From Promethearchaeota archaeon (lineage in GTDB: Archaea > Asgardarchaeota > Lokiarchaeia > Sigyniarchaeales > SOKP01): a stretch of 17,395 nucleotides of DNA. The position numbers were made by a program, and so were the translations under genes. The notes beneath the pieces are model-generated. The model saw nothing but the letters and a program-made list of their open reading frames with translations. It was not told the origin of the DNA and ran no database searches. The stretch's first letter is position 1, and each line of letters opens with the position of its first letter. The stretch covers positions 1 to 17,395 of the forward strand of contig JBHLPW010000083.1 of assembly GCA_048939015.1 (NCBI GenBank), in the 5' to 3' direction. Below are positions 813 to 10,415 of the stretch, in pieces.

Positions 813-857
813 TCTATATATAGAAAATTAATAGAAAATATATAATACTATATAGAA
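813..857. promoter_or_regulatory. Candidate phosphate-regulator sites (core palindromes) upstream of the DUF47-like/PiT operon
   Basis: Perfect palindrome TCTATATATAGA at 813-824 and CTATATAGAA at 848-857. Same core as the sites at 2634, 7935 and 9089. Confidence 0.55.
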
Positions 858-880
858 TTAAAAATGGAATATTTTTACAA

Positions 881-1543
881 ATGAAAAAGGTTGAGGATGA
901 CGATTTAAAGAAGCTTAGCATTGATGAGTTGACTCAATTATTCATGGACAATATAAATGAACAAAATTTGAGACTTATAGAAGGGATTGAATTTCTTGTT
1001 AAAGAGGATTTTAAAAAATTTAAGGAAAATATGAATTATGTCATAGAAACTAATACAGAGGTTCTAATAAAAAAAAAATTTGAATCGAAAATATTCAAAT
1101 CAAAATTAATGTTTTCAAAAGCAGACAGATTAAAGTTGTTCAATAAAATGAACGAGATTAAGAATATTGGGGAATTTTTAGCTAATAAGATGCTTCTTTA
1201 TAAAGCTGTTTTCCCTGATGAAGTATTTAAAGCTCAAATTTTAAGCATCCTTAAATCATTAAAAAATATTTCCAACAATTTATCAGATGCTGTTAAAAGT
1301 ATTGGTACAGATCTCGGTAAATCTCGTGATATTTGTGAAGATATTAAAGATGAGCGCCGAAAGATGAGAAGTGAGGAATGGAAATTATTAAATCGTCTCT
1401 ATAATTATGATATGGACTATTTATCTCGTACATTCATATATCTGAAAGAATTGATTGAGGATATAATGATGCTAGCAGATCATATTAAGAATTTCTCAGA
1501 AAGTATCCAGTTTCTTGCTACTAAATATCTAATTTTTGATTAA
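881..1543 (+). CDS. Divergent DUF47/PhoU-fold protein
   Basis: 220 aa with an all-helical pattern. ADRLKLFNKMNEI and YLKELIEDIMMLADHIKNFSESI match DUF47 helix patterns, but most acidic motifs are degenerate. It ends 22 bp upstream of pit. Confidence 0.65.
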   Translation: MKKVEDDDLKKLSIDELTQLFMDNINEQNLRLIEGIEFLVKEDFKKFKENMNYVIETNTEVLIKKKFESKIFKSKLMFSKADRLKLFNKMNEIKNIGEFLANKMLLYKAVFPDEVFKAQILSILKSLKNISNNLSDAVKSIGTDLGKSRDICEDIKDERRKMRSEEWKLLNRLYNYDMDYLSRTFIYLKELIEDIMMLADHIKNFSESIQFLATKYLIFD

Positions 1544-1565
1544 ATTATTATAAGTCAATAAAATA

Positions 1566-2603
1566 ATGGCTGAAGAATTAACAATAATCCTAGTTATAGT
1601 TTTAATAGCTATGGCTATTGGTTTAGCGTTTAGTATTGGTGCAAATGATGAAACTCTTGCTTCATTAGTCGGAGCTGGTGTATTAAAGTTCAAAATTGCT
1701 CTGATTCTGGGTGGTGTCGCAATCTGTAGTGGCATGATACTTTTTAGTGGAGGTTTTGTCCCAGAAACCGTTGGTAAAAGCCTATTGGGTGAAGGCTTAG
1801 AAGAACAGTACACCAACTACATGCTATTAACTGTATTAATAAGCAGTATTATATGGTTAGTAGTTGGGAGTTTTGCTGGTATTCCTTTAAGTAGCACTCA
1901 TTCATTAATTGGAAGCATTGTCGGGGTTGTTATTATTTACTCAATCTCTCAAGGTGGGGTAGAACTCAGTACAGCATTCAATTATGAGAAGCTAAGAGAT
2001 GTCGTTTTGAGCTGGTTTATATCTCCTATATCTGGTTTATTAATTACATATATACTTTTTAAAATTATTGCTAAAGTTTTTCTATCTCGCCTAAGAGGTC
2101 TAAATCAAATAGAAAAATCTGAGAAAAACTTTAAATGGTTTTTATTAATTGCTGTTTTATTTGCTGAAATTTGGGTTGGAGCTAATTCAGGAGAAGCTGT
2201 TGGGATTCTTTTAGGTCTTAGGGAGAATAATTCTATAACTGGAGGTCAATATCTTATTTTTGCAGTATTAAGTGGTTTTTTTTCTTTTCTAGGAATTTAT
2301 TTCGCAGCGCGTTATGTAATTAGAAATCTAGCCTCACACATGATAGGTACTCGTCCGAGTGAAGGTTTCATTATTCAGATGAGTTCTGCGATTATTTTAA
2401 TGATCGCCACATTATTTGCTTTACCAATTTCTCATAGCCATGTAATTGTTTTCTGCATAGTTGGTATGAGTCTTGCACAAAAAAAAGAAGTTGATTATAA
2501 AGGTTTAGGTAAAATGGCCATTTATTGGGTGTTAACCTTTCCAATAGCTGCGTTTTTGGCCGGATTTATTTATTTTGGATTAAATATGTTTGGATTTTCT
2601 TAA
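1566..2603 (+). CDS. pit: Inorganic phosphate transporter, PiT (PHO4) family
   Basis: Polytopic hydrophobic protein with PiT signatures IGAND, V..TVGK, GIPLSSTHSLIG, a second repeat GANS and LPISHSH, and C-terminal WVLTFP. Flanked by DUF47 genes. Confidence 0.92.
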   Translation: MAEELTIILVIVLIAMAIGLAFSIGANDETLASLVGAGVLKFKIALILGGVAICSGMILFSGGFVPETVGKSLLGEGLEEQYTNYMLLTVLISSIIWLVVGSFAGIPLSSTHSLIGSIVGVVIIYSISQGGVELSTAFNYEKLRDVVLSWFISPISGLLITYILFKIIAKVFLSRLRGLNQIEKSEKNFKWFLLIAVLFAEIWVGANSGEAVGILLGLRENNSITGGQYLIFAVLSGFFSFLGIYFAARYVIRNLASHMIGTRPSEGFIIQMSSAIILMIATLFALPISHSHVIVFCIVGMSLAQKKEVDYKGLGKMAIYWVLTFPIAAFLAGFIYFGLNMFGFS

Positions 2604-2633
2604 TAAAGATTTTATAATAAAAAGATATATATT

Positions 2634-2652
2634 TCTATATATTCTATATAGT
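2634..2652. promoter_or_regulatory. Candidate operator TCTATATA-TTC-TATATAGT
   Basis: Bases 2634-2651 are identical over 18 bp to 9089-9106. The site is 21 bp before the ATG at 2674 and downstream of a TATA-like TTTATAAT (2611-2618). Confidence 0.7.
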
Positions 2653-2673
2653 GTATAAGAAATATTATCGAAA

Positions 2674-3369
2674 ATGGTTGATGAAATGGGTACATTGATT
2701 GAATATTTGAAAAGAGAAACTGCTTTAAATGCCTTAGAAAAAGCTATAAAACACGCTCAAAAAGTGCAAGAATGTGTAAAAGAGTTAGATCTTGGACTTC
2801 AAATTTTATTAAAAGAAAGGAATCTCGAAAAATCATATGAGACTTTTCATAAAGTTGACGTTTTAGAGAGAGATGCTGATAGATTAAGAAGAAAAATACA
2901 ACAAGATATTTCTAGAGGAGAATTGGATCCTAGCGTAAGGCAGAATCTTTCTCATTTAGTTAAAAGAATGGATGACGTCGCAAATTGTTGCACTGGCGTT
3001 GCTCGTAGAATCGCTACAATACCAGATAAGTTTTGGGACCAAAGCAGTGAGGAAACACTAAATTTGATCAGTCAGATAATGAAAACAACAGTAGATTGTG
3101 GTCAATTCTTGGATAAAATTGTAATAGATTTAGTAGAAGATAGGAAAAATGTTAAAGAAATAGCTAGACAAATAAATGAACATGAACATAAAGTCGACCT
3201 AATGAATATTCAATTAAGAAAAAGCCTTCAAGACACTCATTATGATGTCAATTTTTTCACTATTTTTACAGCAGGAAATACATTTGACATTTTGGAGGCA
3301 ATTTCTGATTCAATTGAAGGTGTTGCAGATTATATCATGGTTCTACTGACTAGTGAAAAAGGGATCTGA
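2674..3369 (+). CDS. DUF47 / PhoU-like phosphate transport regulator
   Basis: Motifs LERDADRLRR, RMDDVAN, HEHKVD and LEAISDSIEGVADYI. Colinear paralog of the ORF at 2-625, directly after pit. Confidence 0.9.
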   Translation: MVDEMGTLIEYLKRETALNALEKAIKHAQKVQECVKELDLGLQILLKERNLEKSYETFHKVDVLERDADRLRRKIQQDISRGELDPSVRQNLSHLVKRMDDVANCCTGVARRIATIPDKFWDQSSEETLNLISQIMKTTVDCGQFLDKIVIDLVEDRKNVKEIARQINEHEHKVDLMNIQLRKSLQDTHYDVNFFTIFTAGNTFDILEAISDSIEGVADYIMVLLTSEKGI

Positions 3370-3504
3370 AAGTACTTTGATTCTTTTATTTTAAAAAATC
3401 ATCAAGATTTCTTCAATTTACTTAAAAAATTTATCTTAAACTATTTTAACCATTTATAATGCTTCTTTCTATTTCATTTAGCAGAAAATGAATTATTAGA
3501 GGAT

Positions 3505-4122
3505 TTAAGGATTTCTTAATAGTTTTTGTTTTTTTACATTTTCTTTTATAAGAATAATTGCTTCCTCTCTAGCTTTCAATATAGTTCTCTCTTTAATCCC
3601 TTTCATTTCTTTAGAGGGTAAAACTTTTTCCTTAATCACTTTTTTAAAGAGTAAATATTCATTTTTAGTTGTAATAAAGGGGTCGACCTTCTCCTCATGA
3701 ATAAATTCTTCTATAGAGGTATTTTTGCCATTACAGTTCCCTTCAGTCAGATCGAAATAGTTATCTTTATATACTAAAAAGCAATGTATCATTGGTACAT
3801 AAGGAATTTTATATTTTTTCAAAATTCTTTCAGTGCCAGTTGAGATTTCTTCAGTAAATTTATAAACTCCAACATGTTTAAAAAGCGGAATATTTAATTC
3901 TTCAGCTAAACCAGCAATGACAGCATGTTTAGAAGTACAACTTCCCTTTTTTTCTTTAAAAAAGATAAATTTATCATCATAGTTAGTGTTGTATCCATAT
4001 TCAATATCATGTACATAATTACATGCATCCTTGAAATTTTTAATACCAAGTTCCAAGAATTTATTCGATATATCACCAACAGGTTTAATTTCTGCGTCTG
4101 GTAATTTACTATATGAATCCAT
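3505..4122 (-). CDS. Hypothetical protein with a transglutaminase-like (papain-fold) Cys-His-Asp pattern
   Basis: GSC62TSKH followed by a helix ending ELNIP, then H113 (MIHCFL) and D124 (YFDLT). The order and spacing are typical of the transglutaminase-like superfamily. Confidence 0.6.
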   Translation of the reverse strand: MDSYSKLPDAEIKPVGDISNKFLELGIKNFKDACNYVHDIEYGYNTNYDDKFIFFKEKKGSCTSKHAVIAGLAEELNIPLFKHVGVYKFTEEISTGTERILKKYKIPYVPMIHCFLVYKDNYFDLTEGNCNGKNTSIEEFIHEEKVDPFITTKNEYLLFKKVIKEKVLPSKEMKGIKERTILKAREEAIILIKENVKKQKLLRNP

Positions 4123-4222
4123 GAAAATCTTCCTAGATTATTTAATTATGTTTTACATTTATCACTAAATTATTGTTTATAAAAGTTCCTTCTTACTTTT
4201 ATAATAAGAATGTATAATTTTT

Positions 4223-4876
4223 TCATGTAATCTCTTTATGTTCACCAGTAACCATATAATGTACTTTTTCAGCGATTTTACAGGCATTGTCACCACTCCT
4301 TTCTAAAAATCTTGCTATCATGGCAAAAAAGGCGCATGGAGTAATAGTCTTTGGGTCCTCCATCATATATGTTAAACATTCTCTAAATATTGACCATCTC
4401 ATTTCGTCAATTTCGTCATCCCGCTGCTGAAAATTCTCTATGTACTTTATATCAGCTTCATCAAAAGCTTTAAGTGCATCCTGGATCATTGATTTTGCAT
4501 GCTCCCACATATGTTGCAAGTTAATAAATGGAGCTGGATATGGTTGTTTTTTTGAGATTTCTTCCACAACTGAAGCAATATCTTTCCCATATCTCCCTAT
4601 TCTTGCTAGATAGGTGATCATCTTTAAAATTGTTGCTAATCTTCTGAGATCAATTGCCATGGGTTGATAAAGGGCTATTAATTTCAATGCTTTTGCCTCG
4701 ATATTAGCATCCAATTCTCTTATTTTATGTTTCTTTTCCTCTATAGCTATAGCTAATTCTATATCTTGAGTTGCTAAAGCTTTCATAGAATCATCTAACA
4801 TTCCTAAAGCTAAATTAGCCATTTCAACAACTTCCTTTTTCAGTGCAAAAATCTCTTTATGTAATTCTTTTGCCAA
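4223..4876 (-). CDS. phoU: Phosphate signalling complex protein PhoU
   Basis: Motifs ALYQPMAIDLR, LARIGRY, RDDEIDE and ARFLERSGDNACKIAEKVHYMVTG. I place the start at TTG 4876 (MAKELHKEI) because AGGTG overlapping the pstB stop lies about 7 nt upstream; the ORF track start is 4894. Confidence 0.95.
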   Translation of the reverse strand: MAKELHKEIFALKKEVVEMANLALGMLDDSMKALATQDIELAIAIEEKKHKIRELDANIEAKALKLIALYQPMAIDLRRLATILKMITYLARIGRYGKDIASVVEEISKKQPYPAPFINLQHMWEHAKSMIQDALKAFDEADIKYIENFQQRDDEIDEMRWSIFRECLTYMMEDPKTITPCAFFAMIARFLERSGDNACKIAEKVHYMVTGEHKEIT

Positions 4877-4886
4877 TAAAATACAC

Positions 4887-5720
4887 CTATCCAAATCTTC
4901 CTGTAATATAATTTTCTGTTAATTCTTCCTTTGGGTTTTCAAATATTTGAGTAGTCCTACCAAATTCTATCATTTTTCCTAAATACATGAATCCTGTATA
5001 ATCACTAATCCTTGCTGCTTGTTGCATATTATGGGTCACAATAATTACAGTCCATTCTTTCTTTAATTCAAGTATCAATTCCTCAATTTTTTGCGTAGCA
5101 ATTGGATCAAGAGAAGCAGTTGGTTCATCCATTAGAAGAATTTCAGGTTCAACAGCTAAAGCCCTTGCTATACATAATCTTTGTTGTTGACCTCCAGATA
5201 ATCCCATGGCAGACTCATCTAATCTATCCTTAACTTCATCCCATAGAACTGCTCTTTTTAGACTCTTTTCCGAAATTTCGCTTAAAATATGCTCATCATC
5301 TATTTTATAAATTTTTGGACCATATGTAATGTTATCAAAAATAGTCATTGGAAACGGATTAGGTTTCTGAAAAATCATTCCAATTTTCTTTCTATTCAAT
5401 CTTATATCGGCATCTTTTGCATATAAATTCTTACCTTTAAATAGTACTTCACCTTCAATCTTACATCCCTCAATTACATCATTCATTCGATTCAAGCATC
5501 TTAATAATGTACTTTTTCCACATCCAGAGGGTCCTATAATAGCAGTAACTTCTTTTTTTTTAAATTTCATATTTATATCTATTAAAGCTTGAGTTTCATC
5601 GTACCAAAGATTCAAATTCTTACATTCAATTACAAAATCATTTTTGTATGCGCTTGAATCATTCAATCCATTCCTTTTTTCAATTTTTGTTTTATTACTA
5701 TTTTTTATTTTTATAACCAA
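4887..5720 (-). CDS. pstB: Phosphate ABC transporter ATP-binding protein PstB
   Basis: Walker [40 protein letters not shown], Walker [17 protein letters not shown] and C-terminal YITGRFG. TTG start preceded by SD-like GGTGAT. Confidence 0.98.
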
Positions 5721-5726
5721 GCAATA

Positions 5727-7835
5727 TCACCATTGCTTTCTTTTTTCGTATCTATTTCTTATTATAAATGCTATTCCATAAATTATCAATACTAATAATA
5801 ATAAAGTAAGAGCTGTACCTGCAGCTTCTTCTACTGAGAATAATGCTTCAGTAAGTAATCTATATAAATGATATGTTAGAGCCATTACAGGCTCAAAAAC
5901 GGACATAGTTATCCACCATCTTGAAGTTGTTCTGACAGCAGTAAACATTATAGGTGCTGTCTCTCCAGCACTTCGTCCCATTCCTAAGACTGCTCCAGTA
6001 ACTATACCCGGTAATGCGGCTGGTAATACAATTTTACTAATTCCTTGCCATTTACTTGATCCTAAGGCTAAGCTACCCTTTCTGAACGATTGAGGAATTG
6101 CTTTAACAGCTTCTTCTGTAGTTCTTATTATTGTTGGGAGTATCATTAACCCTAGAGTTAACATGCCTGCTAATAATGATTTCATGAGTCCTAAGAGAAC
6201 CAGAAAAAGAACAACTCCAAATAGCGCAAAAACAATTGAAGGAGTACCATTTAAATTATCAATTCCAGCACGTATAATTTTTGTAATTTTATTATCAGTA
6301 GCATATTCAGAAAGATATATCCCTGCACACATACCAAGTGGTAAGGCAAAGGCAATAGAACCTACTGTAAGTTGAATAGTTCCTGTGATAGCAGGAAGTA
6401 TTCCACCTTCCATTGAAGTACCTGTAAGAAAATTTGGGCGAAATATAACAGGAAGCCCTCTAGCTATAATATAATACAATAACATACCCACAGAAATAAT
6501 TGCAACTGAAGAACATAGATAAATAATCACAAACCACATTTTTTCTTGACCTACAGAAGAAATACGTTTGAATATGAGTTTGATTCCAATAATTAGAGCA
6601 CATATTCCAATAGATAAAAATATTCCAATCCAAGTGCTAAGCACCCATCCGATAAACAATAAGATTACTCCATACAATATCCATTTTTTATAGTTTTTAG
6701 GAACTGTTTTATAAAGATATGCAGCTATACTTAATCCCGCACAAATTAATAGTCCAATTATTTTCGAAACAAAATCTGGAAATATAAGTAGCATTAAGCC
6801 AAAAAGAATTAAATTTATTACAATATGTTTATATTTTATAATTAAGTTGAAAATTGCGGTGCTTTTTAGTTTAGTGTACTTTTCTTTTGGTTTTTCACCA
6901 GTAAATTTTCTTTGAATCCTAGACAATATGACATTTGCAAAGGTATTAACAAAAAGTGTCATGATAAAAAGAGTAATTCCCAAAGCGAAATAACTCCTCC
7001 ATTCTATACTATTTGTCTCAGTTGGTCCTAATCCTAATCCTATAGTTGAAGTTATAACAGCTACACATGAGAACATATTTGTTATTGGTTCAGGAAGGAC
7101 CTTACAATTACCAATTACTAACATCATTGCCATTGTCTCTCCTAATGCTCGTCCAATACCAAGTATCATCGCGGCAGTAATACCTGACATACCAGCAGGA
7201 ACCACCACTCTACGTATTGTTTGCCATTTTGTTGCTCCCATTGCATAGGATGCCTCTCTATAATAATCTGGAACCGCTCTAATTGAATCTTCACAAACAG
7301 ATACAATTGTTGGCAGAGCCATTATAGCTAAAATTAATGAGCCAGATAACCATGTATTTCCATGATGTAAACCGAAAAAGTCTCTTATCCATCCATTCAA
7401 AACAACTAGTCCAAAGAAGCCATATACAATTGAAGGAATACCAGCAAGAATTTCAACGCTAAATTTCATAATCTTCCTAAGTTTTGGAGGTGCCAATTCT
7501 GCAATAAATATAGAAGTCATTAATCCTAAAGGTAAAGCGATGATAATAGCTCCTAAAGTAACTAAAAGAGTATCAACTATTATTGGTAAGGCTCCAAAAT
7601 CACCGTTTGTTGGTAACCAATTAGTACCAAAAAGAAAATCAATTAATGGAACTTCAGCAAAAAAAGGGCCTCCAATTGAAAACAAAAAAATTATTATTAA
7701 AAATACAAAAATAGTTGCAATAGATGCAATGAAAAATAGTATCCATTTTATTACCGGATCTCTATTTTTTTTTAAGAATGAATAATCTTCATCATTTATG
7801 TATAGATTATTTTGAAGAACTGTTTCAGTAGACAT
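5727..7835 (-). CDS. pstCA: Fused phosphate ABC transporter permease PstC-PstA
   Basis: The N-half is PstC-like (LAGIPSIVYGFFG, REASYAMGATKWQTI, GRALGETMA). The C-half is PstA-like (NLNGTPSIVFALFG, SLALGSSKWQ, GRSAGETAPI). They are joined without a stop by a roughly 125-aa hydrophobic linker. Confidence 0.95.
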   Translation of the reverse strand: MSTETVLQNNLYINDEDYSFLKKNRDPVIKWILFFIASIATIFVFLIIIFLFSIGGPFFAEVPLIDFLFGTNWLPTNGDFGALPIIVDTLLVTLGAIIIALPLGLMTSIFIAELAPPKLRKIMKFSVEILAGIPSIVYGFFGLVVLNGWIRDFFGLHHGNTWLSGSLILAIMALPTIVSVCEDSIRAVPDYYREASYAMGATKWQTIRRVVVPAGMSGITAAMILGIGRALGETMAMMLVIGNCKVLPEPITNMFSCVAVITSTIGLGLGPTETNSIEWRSYFALGITLFIMTLFVNTFANVILSRIQRKFTGEKPKEKYTKLKSTAIFNLIIKYKHIVINLILFGLMLLIFPDFVSKIIGLLICAGLSIAAYLYKTVPKNYKKWILYGVILLFIGWVLSTWIGIFLSIGICALIIGIKLIFKRISSVGQEKMWFVIIYLCSSVAIISVGMLLYYIIARGLPVIFRPNFLTGTSMEGGILPAITGTIQLTVGSIAFALPLGMCAGIYLSEYATDNKITKIIRAGIDNLNGTPSIVFALFGVVLFLVLLGLMKSLLAGMLTLGLMILPTIIRTTEEAVKAIPQSFRKGSLALGSSKWQGISKIVLPAALPGIVTGAVLGMGRSAGETAPIMFTAVRTTSRWWITMSVFEPVMALTYHLYRLLTEALFSVEEAAGTALTLLLLVLIIYGIAFIIRNRYEKRKQW

Positions 7836-7932
7836 AGAACTCTATTTAATTAAGGTGTAACACTCAATTTTTAAGCAAAAGAAATTTAGATTTTTTATAT
7901 TTATAATCATCATAGAATATAGTCGAATATTT

Positions 7933-7955
7933 ATTCTATATAAAATATATAGAAT
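7933..7955. promoter_or_regulatory. Candidate operator ATTCTATATA-AAA-TATATAGAAT upstream of pstCA
   Basis: Perfect 10-bp inverted repeat with a 3-bp spacer, matching TCTATATA-N3-TATATAGA exactly. Confidence 0.72.
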
Positions 7956-8036
7956 TAAGAAATGGTGTAGTTACCAGATTTCCTAAAATAAGCTAAGAAT
8001 TTATGTAGTATTAGTTTTAAATTTAATAAAAGATTT

Positions 8037-8047
8037 AAAAAAAAAAA
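8037..8047 (-). terminator. Oligo-T tract downstream of pstS (putative archaeal terminator)
   Basis: A11 on + equals T11 on -, about 30 bp after the pstS stop. Confidence 0.5.
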
Positions 8048-8076
8048 TTTAAAATTTTTACAATAAAATTAGAATT

Positions 8077-8976
8077 TTAAAACCAAAGTCTAATGAATCC
8101 TTCATCTCCAACAACTGTTTGTCCTACTGGACCATAGATAAAGTCAATAAATGCTCTAACCCATCCAGTAGGTTCACCATTAGTTGTAAGATGTAGAGAT
8201 CTAGAAATAGGATAAGAATCATCCAAAATGGTAGCGATTGAGGGAATCACTCCATCTACAGGGATTGCAATTACACTTGTATCCACATATCCTAAACCAC
8301 AGTATCCGATTCCATATTGATCTGCACTCACAGTTGTAACCATTACTGTATTAGAAGCTACTTCTATGTATCCAGTTACTGAACTAGTATATCCCGAATT
8401 ATCGCCAAGTTCTTCAGTACCTCCATATAAAACTAATTCTTCATATGTCGCTCTTGTACCAGAACCATCAGCTCTGGTGTGAACATCAATTGCTTGAGAT
8501 GATAAAGTACTGTTAATATCGTCCCATGTATCATATGTACCATTATAGATTAAAAAGACTTGATCCATTGTAAGTCCATTTGATTGTAACCAGGCTGCAT
8601 CAGGATGACCCGCATCAATAATCACTGCAATACCATCTTTCGCAAATTTAAAATCTGTTAAATCATTGCCAGCTGAAGTATTTTCAGATGCTTTTATATT
8701 ACGTGATGACATACCAATATCATTTTGTTCATCAATTGTGTCAGAAATACCATCTCCAGAACCAGTCCCTGAAACAGAAATGTCAACATTAGGATTTATT
8801 GCCATAAATTGAGTAGCACATTCAGTAATTATTGGTTCACATGTAGTAGAACCTGTTATAATGATACTTGTTGTTCCTGACCCACCTGGAGCAATAAGAG
8901 AAGTAGTACCCCAGCCGACGAAGAACATTGCAATCATGCCAACAGCAGCAACAATCCAAATACCTTTTTTTTCCAT
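8077..8976 (-). CDS. pstS: Phosphate ABC transporter substrate-binding protein PstS
   Basis: Motifs ITGSTT, GTGSGDGI, IGMSSR, DGIAVII, RADGSGTR and YPISRSLH. N-terminal KK plus a hydrophobic helix. Confidence 0.96.
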   Translation of the reverse strand: MEKKGIWIVAAVGMIAMFFVGWGTTSLIAPGGSGTTSIIITGSTTCEPIITECATQFMAINPNVDISVSGTGSGDGISDTIDEQNDIGMSSRNIKASENTSAGNDLTDFKFAKDGIAVIIDAGHPDAAWLQSNGLTMDQVFLIYNGTYDTWDDINSTLSSQAIDVHTRADGSGTRATYEELVLYGGTEELGDNSGYTSSVTGYIEVASNTVMVTTVSADQYGIGYCGLGYVDTSVIAIPVDGVIPSIATILDDSYPISRSLHLTTNGEPTGWVRAFIDFIYGPVGQTVVGDEGFIRLWF

Positions 8977-9088
8977 TTTTTTTTCACAAATAAAATTTTT
9001 TGTATTTTTGTTGTTAAAATTTGGTTAATTAGAGATATCACTGAGAAAATATAAGAGATTACGATATAGTTTATGATGATTTATTTAC

Positions 9089-9109
9089 TCTATATATTCT
9101 ATATAGAAT
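9089..9109. promoter_or_regulatory. Candidate operator TCTATATA-TTC-TATATAGA upstream of pstS
   Basis: Perfect 8-3-8 inverted repeat (9089-9107) overlapping a 14-bp palindrome ATTCTATATAGAAT (9096-9109). Confidence 0.72.
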
Positions 9110-9186
9110 CTCTTTTTTACCATCTTTCAATCGAAAATGAAATTATTGTTGAGTTAATAAATCAAAGAGAACTAATCAAAAAGGCT

Positions 9187-9198
9187 AACTATATAGTT
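9187..9198. promoter_or_regulatory. Core palindrome AACTATATAGTT in the pstS/regulator divergent region
   Basis: Perfect 12-bp palindrome with the CTATATAG core. Confidence 0.5.
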
Positions 9199-9274
9199 TA
9201 ATAATATTATTAATTTACTTTTTTGTAAAAGGATAAATAAATATTGATTGGAATAATAAAAAATAAAAAAGATA

Positions 9275-9309
9275 TATATAGAATATAGAATATATATAGA
9301 GTATATAGT
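9275..9309. promoter_or_regulatory. Four-unit, 9-bp-period array of the candidate operator
   Basis: TATATA-gaa-TATAGA-ata-TATATA-gag-TATATA-gt, with units starting at 9275, 9284, 9293 and 9302. Confidence 0.6.
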
Positions 9310-9375
9310 TGTAGTATAAAATAGATTGATTATTTATTCTATATAACTAAGTTAGCCTAATACAGCAATTTAAAA

Positions 9376-9387
9376 ATCTATATAGAT
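9376..9387. promoter_or_regulatory. Core palindrome ATCTATATAGAT just upstream of the regulator gene
   Basis: Perfect 12-bp palindrome abutting TATA-like TTTAAAAA (9369-9376), 23 bp before the ATG at 9411. Confidence 0.55.
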
Positions 9388-9410: not shown

Positions 9411-10415
9411 ATGGGTTTTCATATTGAGACACGTAAAGTTCAGAAAACAGGGGGTTCAAGTTATATTATTTCTCTTCCAAAAGTATGGATTGATAAGCAT
9501 GGTGTGAAAAAGAATGATACTTTAGGAATTCTTTCCCAACCTGATGGTAATTTACTTATAACTCCCAAAATTGATAATGAAACAGCTATTAAAACAAAGG
9601 AGATAATTGTAGATGATTTTGAAGATGAAAATTTCTTGTTTCGGGTTTTAATTGGAGCATATATAATGGGATTTTCAAGAATAGTTATTAAATCAAGTAG
9701 AAAATTTGAGCCTTTAATAAGAGACACTATTACTAATTTTACACAAATTGCTATTGGTCCCGAAATAGTCGAAGAATCCAACAATTTTATAGTGATTAAA
9801 GATCTACTCAATCCAAAAGAAATGCCCTTCGAAAAAACTATAAAAAGAATGTATATTTTAGTACAAGGTATGCATGAAGATTCTATAAATGCATTTGAAA
9901 CCAAAGATAAAGATTTAGCTGAAGAAGTCATAAAAAGGGATAACGATGTTGATAGATTGCACTGGCTAATTGGTCGTCAATCACATATCGTATTGAAAGA
10001 TATAATTCTGTGTCAGAAAATGGGAATTACATTAGAACAGGCAAGCCATTACCAACAAATAAGCCGATTCTTGGAACGTATAGGAGATCACGCTAGTAAA
10101 ATCGCTAAAAACGTCTTGATCCTTTTAAATCATGAATTAGATAAAAATATAAAGGAAGAAATTAAATCGGTTAGCACATTATCACTAGATCTATTGAATA
10201 AAAGTCTTGATGCTTGGTTGCAAAAAAGCTTAGTTTTAGCAAATGAGAATATTGAAGATATAAAGAACTTAATAACTATGACAGAAAAAATTAGCCTTAA
10301 CACCATAAAGAGTGCAGAAGTTTCAATAGCATTAGGGTATATAATCGAAAGTATAAGAAGAACTGCAGAATATTCTGGAGATATATCCGAAATTATTATA
10401 AATAATTTAGTTTAA
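9411..10415 (+). CDS. Archaeal phosphate uptake regulator (N-terminal AbrB/MazE/SpoVT DNA-binding domain plus PhoU domains)
   Basis: RKVQKTGGSSYIISLPKVW..GVKKNDTL is an AbrB swapped-hairpin signature. RDNDVDRL, RFLERIGDHASKIA and ESIRRTAEYSGDISE are PhoU repeats. Divergent from pstS. Confidence 0.93.
   Translation: MGFHIETRKVQKTGGSSYIISLPKVWIDKHGVKKNDTLGILSQPDGNLLITPKIDNETAIKTKEIIVDDFEDENFLFRVLIGAYIMGFSRIVIKSSRKFEPLIRDTITNFTQIAIGPEIVEESNNFIVIKDLLNPKEMPFEKTIKRMYILVQGMHEDSINAFETKDKDLAEEVIKRDNDVDRLHWLIGRQSHIVLKDIILCQKMGITLEQASHYQQISRFLERIGDHASKIAKNVLILLNHELDKNIKEEIKSVSTLSLDLLNKSLDAWLQKSLVLANENIEDIKNLITMTEKISLNTIKSAEVSIALGYIIESIRRTAEYSGDISEIIINNLV

Follow-up and report, generated by a model that had tools for sequence, protein, structure and literature searches.

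Introduction

In E. coli, the Pho box of the PhoB-PhoR system consists of two 7-bp direct repeats (CTGTCAT) that recur with an 11-bp period. In archaea, one-component regulators of the NrpR and TrmB type act at the B recognition element (BRE) and TATA box to control uptake genes. To our knowledge, the means by which archaea sense phosphate and turn on pst and pit are largely obscure; archaea lack PhoBR, and AbrB-PhoU proteins have been annotated by domain only. Here we analyze a 17,395-bp stretch of DNA from a Promethearchaeota archaeon of the Lokiarchaeia (the window), which is the entire contig C97 of a metagenome-assembled genome (MAG; 4.86 Mb, 30% GC, 125 contigs, 95% complete), and in which repeats of a short TATA-like unit, TATATAG, precede the genes of two phosphate transport systems and of a protein that joins an AbrB domain to a PhoU domain (9411-10415, +). 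We consider it probable, from sequence comparisons, that arrays of this unit serve a Lokiarchaeial phosphate (Pho) regulon as its operator, with AbrB-PhoU as their most likely binder.

Relation to described regulatory systems

Two published reports concern proteins of this kind. TK2245 of T. kodakarensis, a 'SpoVT/AbrB family regulator containing PhoU domain', is among the chromosome-associated proteins of that organism (PMC7325993), and PhoU-like proteins of P. furiosus are predicted transcription factors (PMC6316755). They have the same AbrB-PhoU domain architecture as the window protein, to which they are likened here by architecture and not by orthology, but no operator, regulon or signal is given for them (PMC7325993, PMC6316755). 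The preliminary description of this locus knew of no earlier account of the motif; consistent with this, the literature searched contains no AbrB-PhoU operator and no archaeal Pho box, most subscription journals being outside its coverage, so that absence is unproven.

The element resembles the bacterial Pho box in that short direct repeats of fixed period lie just upstream of the core promoter at pstS, pst and phosphatase or phosphoesterase genes, in that the regulator gene itself carries a site, and in that sites are confined to phosphate-acquisition promoters and mark a phosphate-scavenging regulon. However, the sequence [C/A]TATATAG is unrelated to that of the Pho box, the period is 9 bp rather than 11, no OmpR/PhoB winged-helix domain is found in the genome, the putative binder is a one-component AbrB-PhoU fusion, and the promoters are of the archaeal BRE/TATA type. 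It is thus a candidate archaeal counterpart of the bacterial Pho box, functionally similar but without the defining PhoB and Pho-box features.

The two halves of the fusion have separate bacterial relatives. With the AbrB/SpoVT/MazE swapped-hairpin proteins, of which Bacillus AbrB is an example, the window protein shares an N-terminal PF04014 domain that scores above cut-off. AbrB forms tetramers, and the AT-rich preference and multi-unit sites found here fit oligomeric binding; unlike AbrB, which has no sharp consensus, the 8-bp unit is well defined, and the C-terminal partner is PhoU instead of AbrB-C or the GAF domain of SpoVT. With bacterial PhoU (Aquifex 1T72, Pseudomonas 4Q25) the C-terminal half shares a six-helix bundle (template modeling score, TM, ~0.8) and both E/D-xxx-D motifs. 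Bacterial PhoU, however, has no DNA-binding domain and works through PstB/PhoR, whereas here PhoU is joined to a DNA-binding head, and the window additionally encodes a stand-alone PhoU (4223-4894). NrpR (nitrogen) and the TrmB family (sugars) offer a comparison within the archaea: each senses a metabolite and controls uptake genes through repeated or palindromic operators that adjoin or overlap BRE/TATA, but neither the DNA-binding fold nor the sensor domain nor the nutrient is the one considered here.

A tandem element precedes the phosphate genes

The element had been described as an 8-3-8 inverted repeat, TCTATATA-N3-TATATAGA, and every site then listed is present: perfect matches lie at 7935-7953 and 9089-9107, imperfect ones at 2634-2652 (one mismatch) and 9291-9309 (two mismatches), the bases of 2634-2651 and 9089-9106 are identical, and additional palindromic cores occur at 813-824, 848-855, 9187-9198 and 9376-9387. 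All but one of the 21 TATATAG/CTATATA 7-mers in the window fall inside four spacers located ahead of phosphate genes; none is found in the other five spacers, which are equally AT-rich (76-86% AT) and had been called free of sites. At up to three mismatches the 8-3-8 motif occurs seven times in the window compared with 0.72 times expected, a count that none of 200 shuffled sequences reaches.

Comparison with relatives modifies this picture, because the inverted repeat exists only as the two-unit case of a larger element. An orthologous set of 65 loci (705 kb), whose regulators are 60-93% identical, was assembled from Promethearchaeota/Promethearchaeia (Loki-type Asgard) MAGs. De novo expectation maximization (EM) on 59 upstream regions of the orthologous regulator genes yields the motif [A/C]TATATAGA-A-TATATAGA; across the 65 loci the spacing from one TATATAG unit to the next is 9 bp in 59 cases and 10 bp in 11, and in relatives the arrays can extend to three or four units, as they do ahead of the ABC transporter (described below) and the pit operon. 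This spacing, together with the longer arrays, shows that the element is an array of two to four quasi-palindromic 8-bp units, [C/A]TATATAG, with a period of 9 bp, and not only an 8-3-8 repeat. The units are always oriented with their G-ended side toward the regulated gene, and in all targets a TATA-like box (TAAATAA, TAAATAAA, TAAATATT, TATAAAAT/TTTAAATA, TAAAACTATT or TTATATAA) follows 0-8 bp past the last unit. The arrays would accordingly occupy the region of the BRE, roughly -38 to -55 from the predicted start sites. Weaker units lie close to the inferred starts, or precede the ATGs of DUF47b, DUF47c and the regulator gene by 23-26 nt.

A genome-wide scan of the kind proposed earlier was performed with a position weight matrix (PWM) built de novo from the 59 upstream regions of the regulator gene, with a third-order Markov model of 579 kb of intergenic DNA from the same genome as background. 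Enrichment at phosphate-related genes is strong: six distinct sites reach 18 bits or more versus 0.28 expected, and the exact tandem is seen seven times versus 0.025 expected. Thus the motif is not equally frequent upstream of unrelated genes, since all six sites stand beside phosphate-related ones. Four lie in the window. The fifth, C5:4333, precedes two small open reading frames (ORFs) and a calcineurin-like metallophosphoesterase, and the sixth, C36:5552, precedes an ATP-binding cassette (ABC) transporter (an SBP_bac_11 binding protein, a fused CysT/ModB/PhnV-type permease and two ATPases) and is directly downstream of a type I phosphodiesterase / nucleotide pyrophosphatase gene. The 8-3-8 19-mer itself has three perfect and two one-mismatch matches in the 4.86 Mb, three of these five being inside the 17-kb window.

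The specificity belongs to the tandem only, and not to the single CTATATAG. That octamer has 89 copies genome-wide, 24 of them intergenic (5 of those in the window), and was rejected as a marker of the regulon, since isolated intergenic copies adjoin genes of a restriction-modification methylase, an aminotransferase, an acyl-CoA dehydrogenase, rpoA and other unrelated genes. PWM matches of 12-18 bits, which lie mostly within coding regions, were set aside as noise; a search for the 16-bp tandem with one mismatch allowed did no better than its reversed control, so that only exact or PWM-scored sites are informative. The usual TATA element of this genome is TTTAWATA, most genes have a Shine-Dalgarno sequence at -15 to -6, and TATATAG/CTATATA has no positional peak across 1233 upstream regions. 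The rarity of the element, its placement at phosphate genes and this lack of a positional peak together indicate that it is not a generic promoter feature.

Conservation of the arrays in related genomes

In the 705 kb of orthologous loci, 81 of the 82 sites of at least 16 bits fall within 350 bp upstream of the start of a phosphate gene (regulator, 60; DUF47b, 10; pstCA, 4; DUF47c, 4; pstS alone, 3), and none is found at the flanking FAD oxidoreductase, MBL, ferredoxin and MFS genes or inside mapped genes. The gene upstream of the regulator varies, being divergent pstS, hyp205 in either orientation, co-directional DUF47a or DUF47c, or an unrelated gene; whatever this neighbour, the array stands ~60-140 bp before the regulator start codon (the site being kept in 59 orthologous loci). 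Sites are also kept at orthologous pstS, pstCA, pit, ABC-transporter and phosphoesterase promoters, and the conservation at pst and pit promoters that had been put forward as a check is therefore present (pstS, pstCA, pit/DUF47). Ten further genomes of the genus contain 0-6 exact tandems each (reversed control, 0-1 in the five genomes counted), nearly all of them at the regulator, the pit operon, the ABC transporter and an orf56-orf75-metallophosphoesterase operon.

The last of these is the conserved operon at L001 3870-4251 (G000 C5; orthologues in L139, L140, L146, L147 and L151), which encodes a 56-aa helical ORF, a ~60-aa zinc-ribbon ORF (CPxC...CxxC) and the metallophosphoesterase, and whose two-unit site is a perfect palindrome. 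In six relatives the ABC transporter and the regulator share a contig, 6-14 kb apart, and in a seventh the distance is ~1 kb; this proximity suggests a phosphate-related role for the transporter. The predicted regulon thus includes pstS, pstCAB-phoU, pit/DUF47, the regulator gene, the ABC transporter beside the phosphodiesterase gene, and the small-ORF/metallophosphoesterase operon.

A small ORF of ~30-45 aa with a single transmembrane helix is encoded between the operator and the ABC binding-protein gene (L002 ~5360-5450, G000 C36; L086-L106), and it is kept even in other families of the order that have no TATATAG motif. Some of these other families contain a different palindrome, CCATATGG / CATATG-N3-CATATG (L097-L104, L133-L136, L196-L208). 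Of five genomes searched, four contain one to five copies each and G025 contains none (reversed control, 0). The copies lie upstream of the ABC transporter, of distant AbrB-PhoU homologues, and of CBS, Band 7 and methyltransferase genes. The presence of this palindrome in distant families at the ABC promoter and at some AbrB-PhoU homologues of 26-30% identity had raised the idea of co-evolution of operator and regulator; this idea was dropped because genome-wide the palindromes adjoin CBS, Band 7, methyltransferase and beta-lactamase genes and are not phosphate-specific, and they probably belong to a different regulon.

The AbrB-PhoU protein as candidate binder

The protein encoded at 9411-10415 has 334 residues and comprises an AbrB/MazE domain (residues 11-55), an alpha/beta middle domain (~62-131) and a complete PhoU six-helix bundle (140-333). 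The AbrB domain matches PF04014 with 41.7 bits (cut-off, 24.7; 46 bits in the genome search), and the C-terminal 190 residues, which form two three-helix repeats, match PhoU (PF01895) with 82 bits. In the monomer model the predicted local confidence (pLDDT) of residues 1-59 is low, as would be expected of a swapped-hairpin fold, which is complete only in the dimer; Foldseek aligns the PhoU bundle of the model with 1T72, 4Q25 and 1XWM at TM ~0.8. Of the PhoU metal/phosphate motifs E222xxxD226 and E320xxxD324 and their surroundings, E222, D226, H227, D324 and E327 are invariant in 22 sequences and E320 is nearly so.

Several observations point to this protein as the binder. It is the only product of the cluster with a DNA-binding domain. 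PhoB, which had been reported absent from the window, is indeed not among the window proteins, and a search for the OmpR/PhoB-type domain PF00486 (Trans_reg_C) that found matches in 10 control bacteria found none in this 95%-complete genome. AbrB-PhoU homologues are present in 69 of 81 sampled Asgard genomes, and for 20 distant homologues (other Asgard families, 29-38% identity, some at 45-49% GC) TATATAG is ~30-fold denser in the 200 bp upstream of the gene than in the flanks (18 in 4.0 kb vs 10 in 69 kb); the units thus follow AbrB-PhoU genes across the phylum. Conversely, no regulator is found in G021, and neither its pit nor its phosphoesterase promoter carries the motif. The earlier proposal, that the motif is the operator of the adjacent AbrB-PhoU protein and controls both PiT and Pst, is accordingly borne out as far as regulon-specific arrays at both systems and at the regulator gene are concerned, and binding of the arrays by AbrB-PhoU is what we infer.

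Other observations weigh against this assignment. Because the PWM was trained on regulator upstream regions, the 60 of the 81 conserved sites that lie there cannot count as independent of it, and related genomes are themselves non-independent samples. In the distant genomes single units, having a TATA-like core, are indistinguishable from ordinary TATA boxes. The binding protein of the C36 ABC transporter has no NCBIfam match and no sequence relative in the PDB that would indicate a substrate. Finally, searches of G011 (99% complete) and G019 recover neither the regulator, even at E 1e-3, nor the orthologous pit/pst cluster, and both genomes still keep the palindromic tandem at the phosphoesterase operon; either the phosphate cluster is missing from these bins or another protein binds the site there.

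The latter possibility generalizes to the foremost alternative, in which the arrays are a genuine Pho operator bound by another protein, and the AbrB-PhoU gene is merely one target. The binder would then be one of the two small proteins, helical and zinc-ribbon, encoded at the start of the phosphoesterase operon, or a further factor: the site and the orf75-metallophosphoesterase operon persist in G011 and G019, orf75 has a CPxC...CxxC zinc ribbon, and a site in front of a gene is evidence for control of that gene, but not for a regulatory role of its product. The orf56 and orf75 proteins, however, belong to no recognised DNA-binding family, the loss of regulator and motif together in G021 runs the other way, and even in the present genome the phosphate cluster sits on a small contig and is therefore easily lost from bins. 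With these points added to the distribution of units at AbrB-PhoU genes, we regard a different binder as unlikely.

Proposed mechanism and further alternatives

In the mechanism that we propose for AbrB-PhoU, each palindromic unit would be occupied by one AbrB-domain dimer, and the PhoU bundles would link dimers into an oligomer. The PhoU domain, with its two conserved E/D-xxx-D motifs, would read phosphate status either directly or through PstB/PiT-DUF47, and this reading would alter occupancy of the DNA and hence access of TFB and TBP to the promoter. As a repressor, the protein would keep the promoters shut when phosphate is plentiful and would repress its own gene too. We lean slightly toward such repression over activation, the sign of regulation being judged from the weaker extra units near the inferred starts, the TATA-like core of the unit and the usual behaviour of the AbrB family. 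The somewhat less favoured alternative is an activator bound upstream of the BRE, a position typical of archaeal activators. Whether AbrB-PhoU is of ancient origin and governs phosphate acquisition as master regulator throughout the Asgard phylum, and perhaps in archaea at large, working as a one-component sensor with TATA-mimicking units competing directly with TBP/TFB, is in our judgement an evenly balanced proposition.

The TATA-like character of the unit also admits the reading that the units are specialised core-promoter elements, that is, TATA boxes in tandem that TBP/TFB or a TBP-like paralogue would recognise, rather than binding sites for a regulator of their own. A TATATA core is a good TBP site, DUF47b, DUF47c and the regulator gene each have a single CTATATAG unit 23-26 nt ahead of the ATG, and a 336-aa ORF at G000 C52:282-497 has a single TBP-like repeat, besides the canonical two-repeat TBP encoded on C57. 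This reading is at odds with the different general TATA element and the missing positional peak reported above; moreover, conserved G/C flanks, a strict 9-bp period and up to four units directly upstream of another TATA-like box are not core-promoter features, and the arrays are limited to phosphate genes. We judge it quite improbable. That the palindromes act as RNA hairpins (an attenuator or processing site) or are low-complexity chance repeats is scarcely credible, since only two of four sites fold better than shuffled sequences (-7.3 kcal/mol, z -4.0; -7.2 kcal/mol, z -2.7) while the other two do not (z -0.97 and -0.35), the three or four direct units and the variable dinucleotides between units do not preserve a hairpin, searches for Rfam matches and terminator-like sites were negative, and chance repeats are excluded by the enrichment over Markov and shuffled controls.

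For the AbrB-PhoU operator proposed here, a sharply defined cis-element that is conserved in many genomes and marks a coherent regulon makes the question of phosphate control directly testable. That regulon covers both phosphate transporters, an additional ABC transporter, a phosphoesterase operon and the regulator gene. The motif is also a tool for predicting phosphate-responsive genes in uncultured Asgard genomes, and a TATA-like operator suggests a simple route by which a regulator may compete with the basal transcription machinery that archaea and eukaryotes have in common.

Individual sites and gene content of the window

On the plus strand, the distal unit of the DUF47b-pit promoter is the 12-bp palindrome TCTATATATAGA at 813-824 (orthologous DUF47b upstream regions keep 'taTATATAGaaa'), and its proximal unit is a single CTATATAG at 848-855, 26 nt before the DUF47b ATG, in a TATA-like position that is kept in orthologues. 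The two-unit site at 2634-2652 (+), CTATATA-tt-CTATATAG, scores 24.4 bits, lies between pit and DUF47c and is kept in several orthologous loci. On the minus strand, the two-unit site upstream of fused pstCA (7935-7953; 19.7 bits; kept in L007, L011 and L063) is followed by the TATA-like TAAATATT, and that upstream of pstS (9089-9107; 24.2 bits; kept in 8 orthologous pstS promoters) by the TATA-like TAAATAAA. The divergent spacer between pstS and the regulator gene contains a single palindromic unit without assigned strand, AACTATATAGTT at 9187-9198, which recurs ~215 bp upstream of the regulator in several orthologues. Next, ahead of the regulator gene, comes the array of some four units (9271-9309, +; 22.3 bits), the top de novo EM motif, with TATATAG at 9275, 9293 and 9302, a degenerate AATATAG at 9282, and TATAAAAT beyond its end; this array is a putative autoregulatory site. 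Closer to the gene on the same strand are a CTATATA unit near the inferred regulator transcription start (9341-9347), where 'ttattCTATATAact' is kept in the window-like orthologue group, and the 12-bp palindrome ATCTATATAGAT 26 nt before the regulator ATG (9376-9387), kept in many orthologues.

Orthologues share conserved sequence in the stretches of ~100 nt that separate the operator/TATA-like box from the start codons of pstS (8977-9088, -) and pstCA (7836-7934, -), as in ctat[ag]tcg...tcttatatttt...taattaacc. These stretches, which have no Rfam match, may be 5' leaders subject to regulation.

The gene map is based on Pfam and NCBIfam profile matches, which agree with the gene calls of the preliminary description (three DUF47, PiT, PstS, fused PstCA, PstB, PhoU and AbrB(PF04014)-PhoU). 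On the plus strand, a DUF47/PhoU_div gene (DUF47a, 11-625) is followed by DUF47b (881-1543), pit (1566-2603) and DUF47c (2674-3369); DUF47b-pit and DUF47c (881-3369) constitute a low-affinity PiT system with PhoU_div partners, and all three are putative targets. The minus strand carries the operon pstCA-pstB-phoU (4223-7835), also a putative target, made up of the fused PstCA permease (5727-7835), PstB (4887-5720) and the stand-alone PhoU (4223-4894), as well as the gene of the phosphate-binding protein PstS (8077-8976), a further putative target. The AbrB/MazE-PhoU gene comes next on the plus strand, and after it stand redox and MFS genes unrelated to phosphate.

In other Asgard families, several AbrB-PhoU homologues (G099:C160, G105:C176, G067:C235, G102:C1 and G092:C17) contain TAG in frame once or twice, or in a few cases TGA; these could be recoded stops, pseudogenes or assembly errors. 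The remaining gene of the cluster, hyp205 (3505-4122, -), encodes a soluble protein of 205 aa with no Pfam or NCBIfam match that accompanies the phosphate cluster in many relatives, where it stands beside the regulator gene (in either orientation) or after phoU; a language-model atlas places it close to unnamed clusters, with a weaker link to a transglutaminase-like one.

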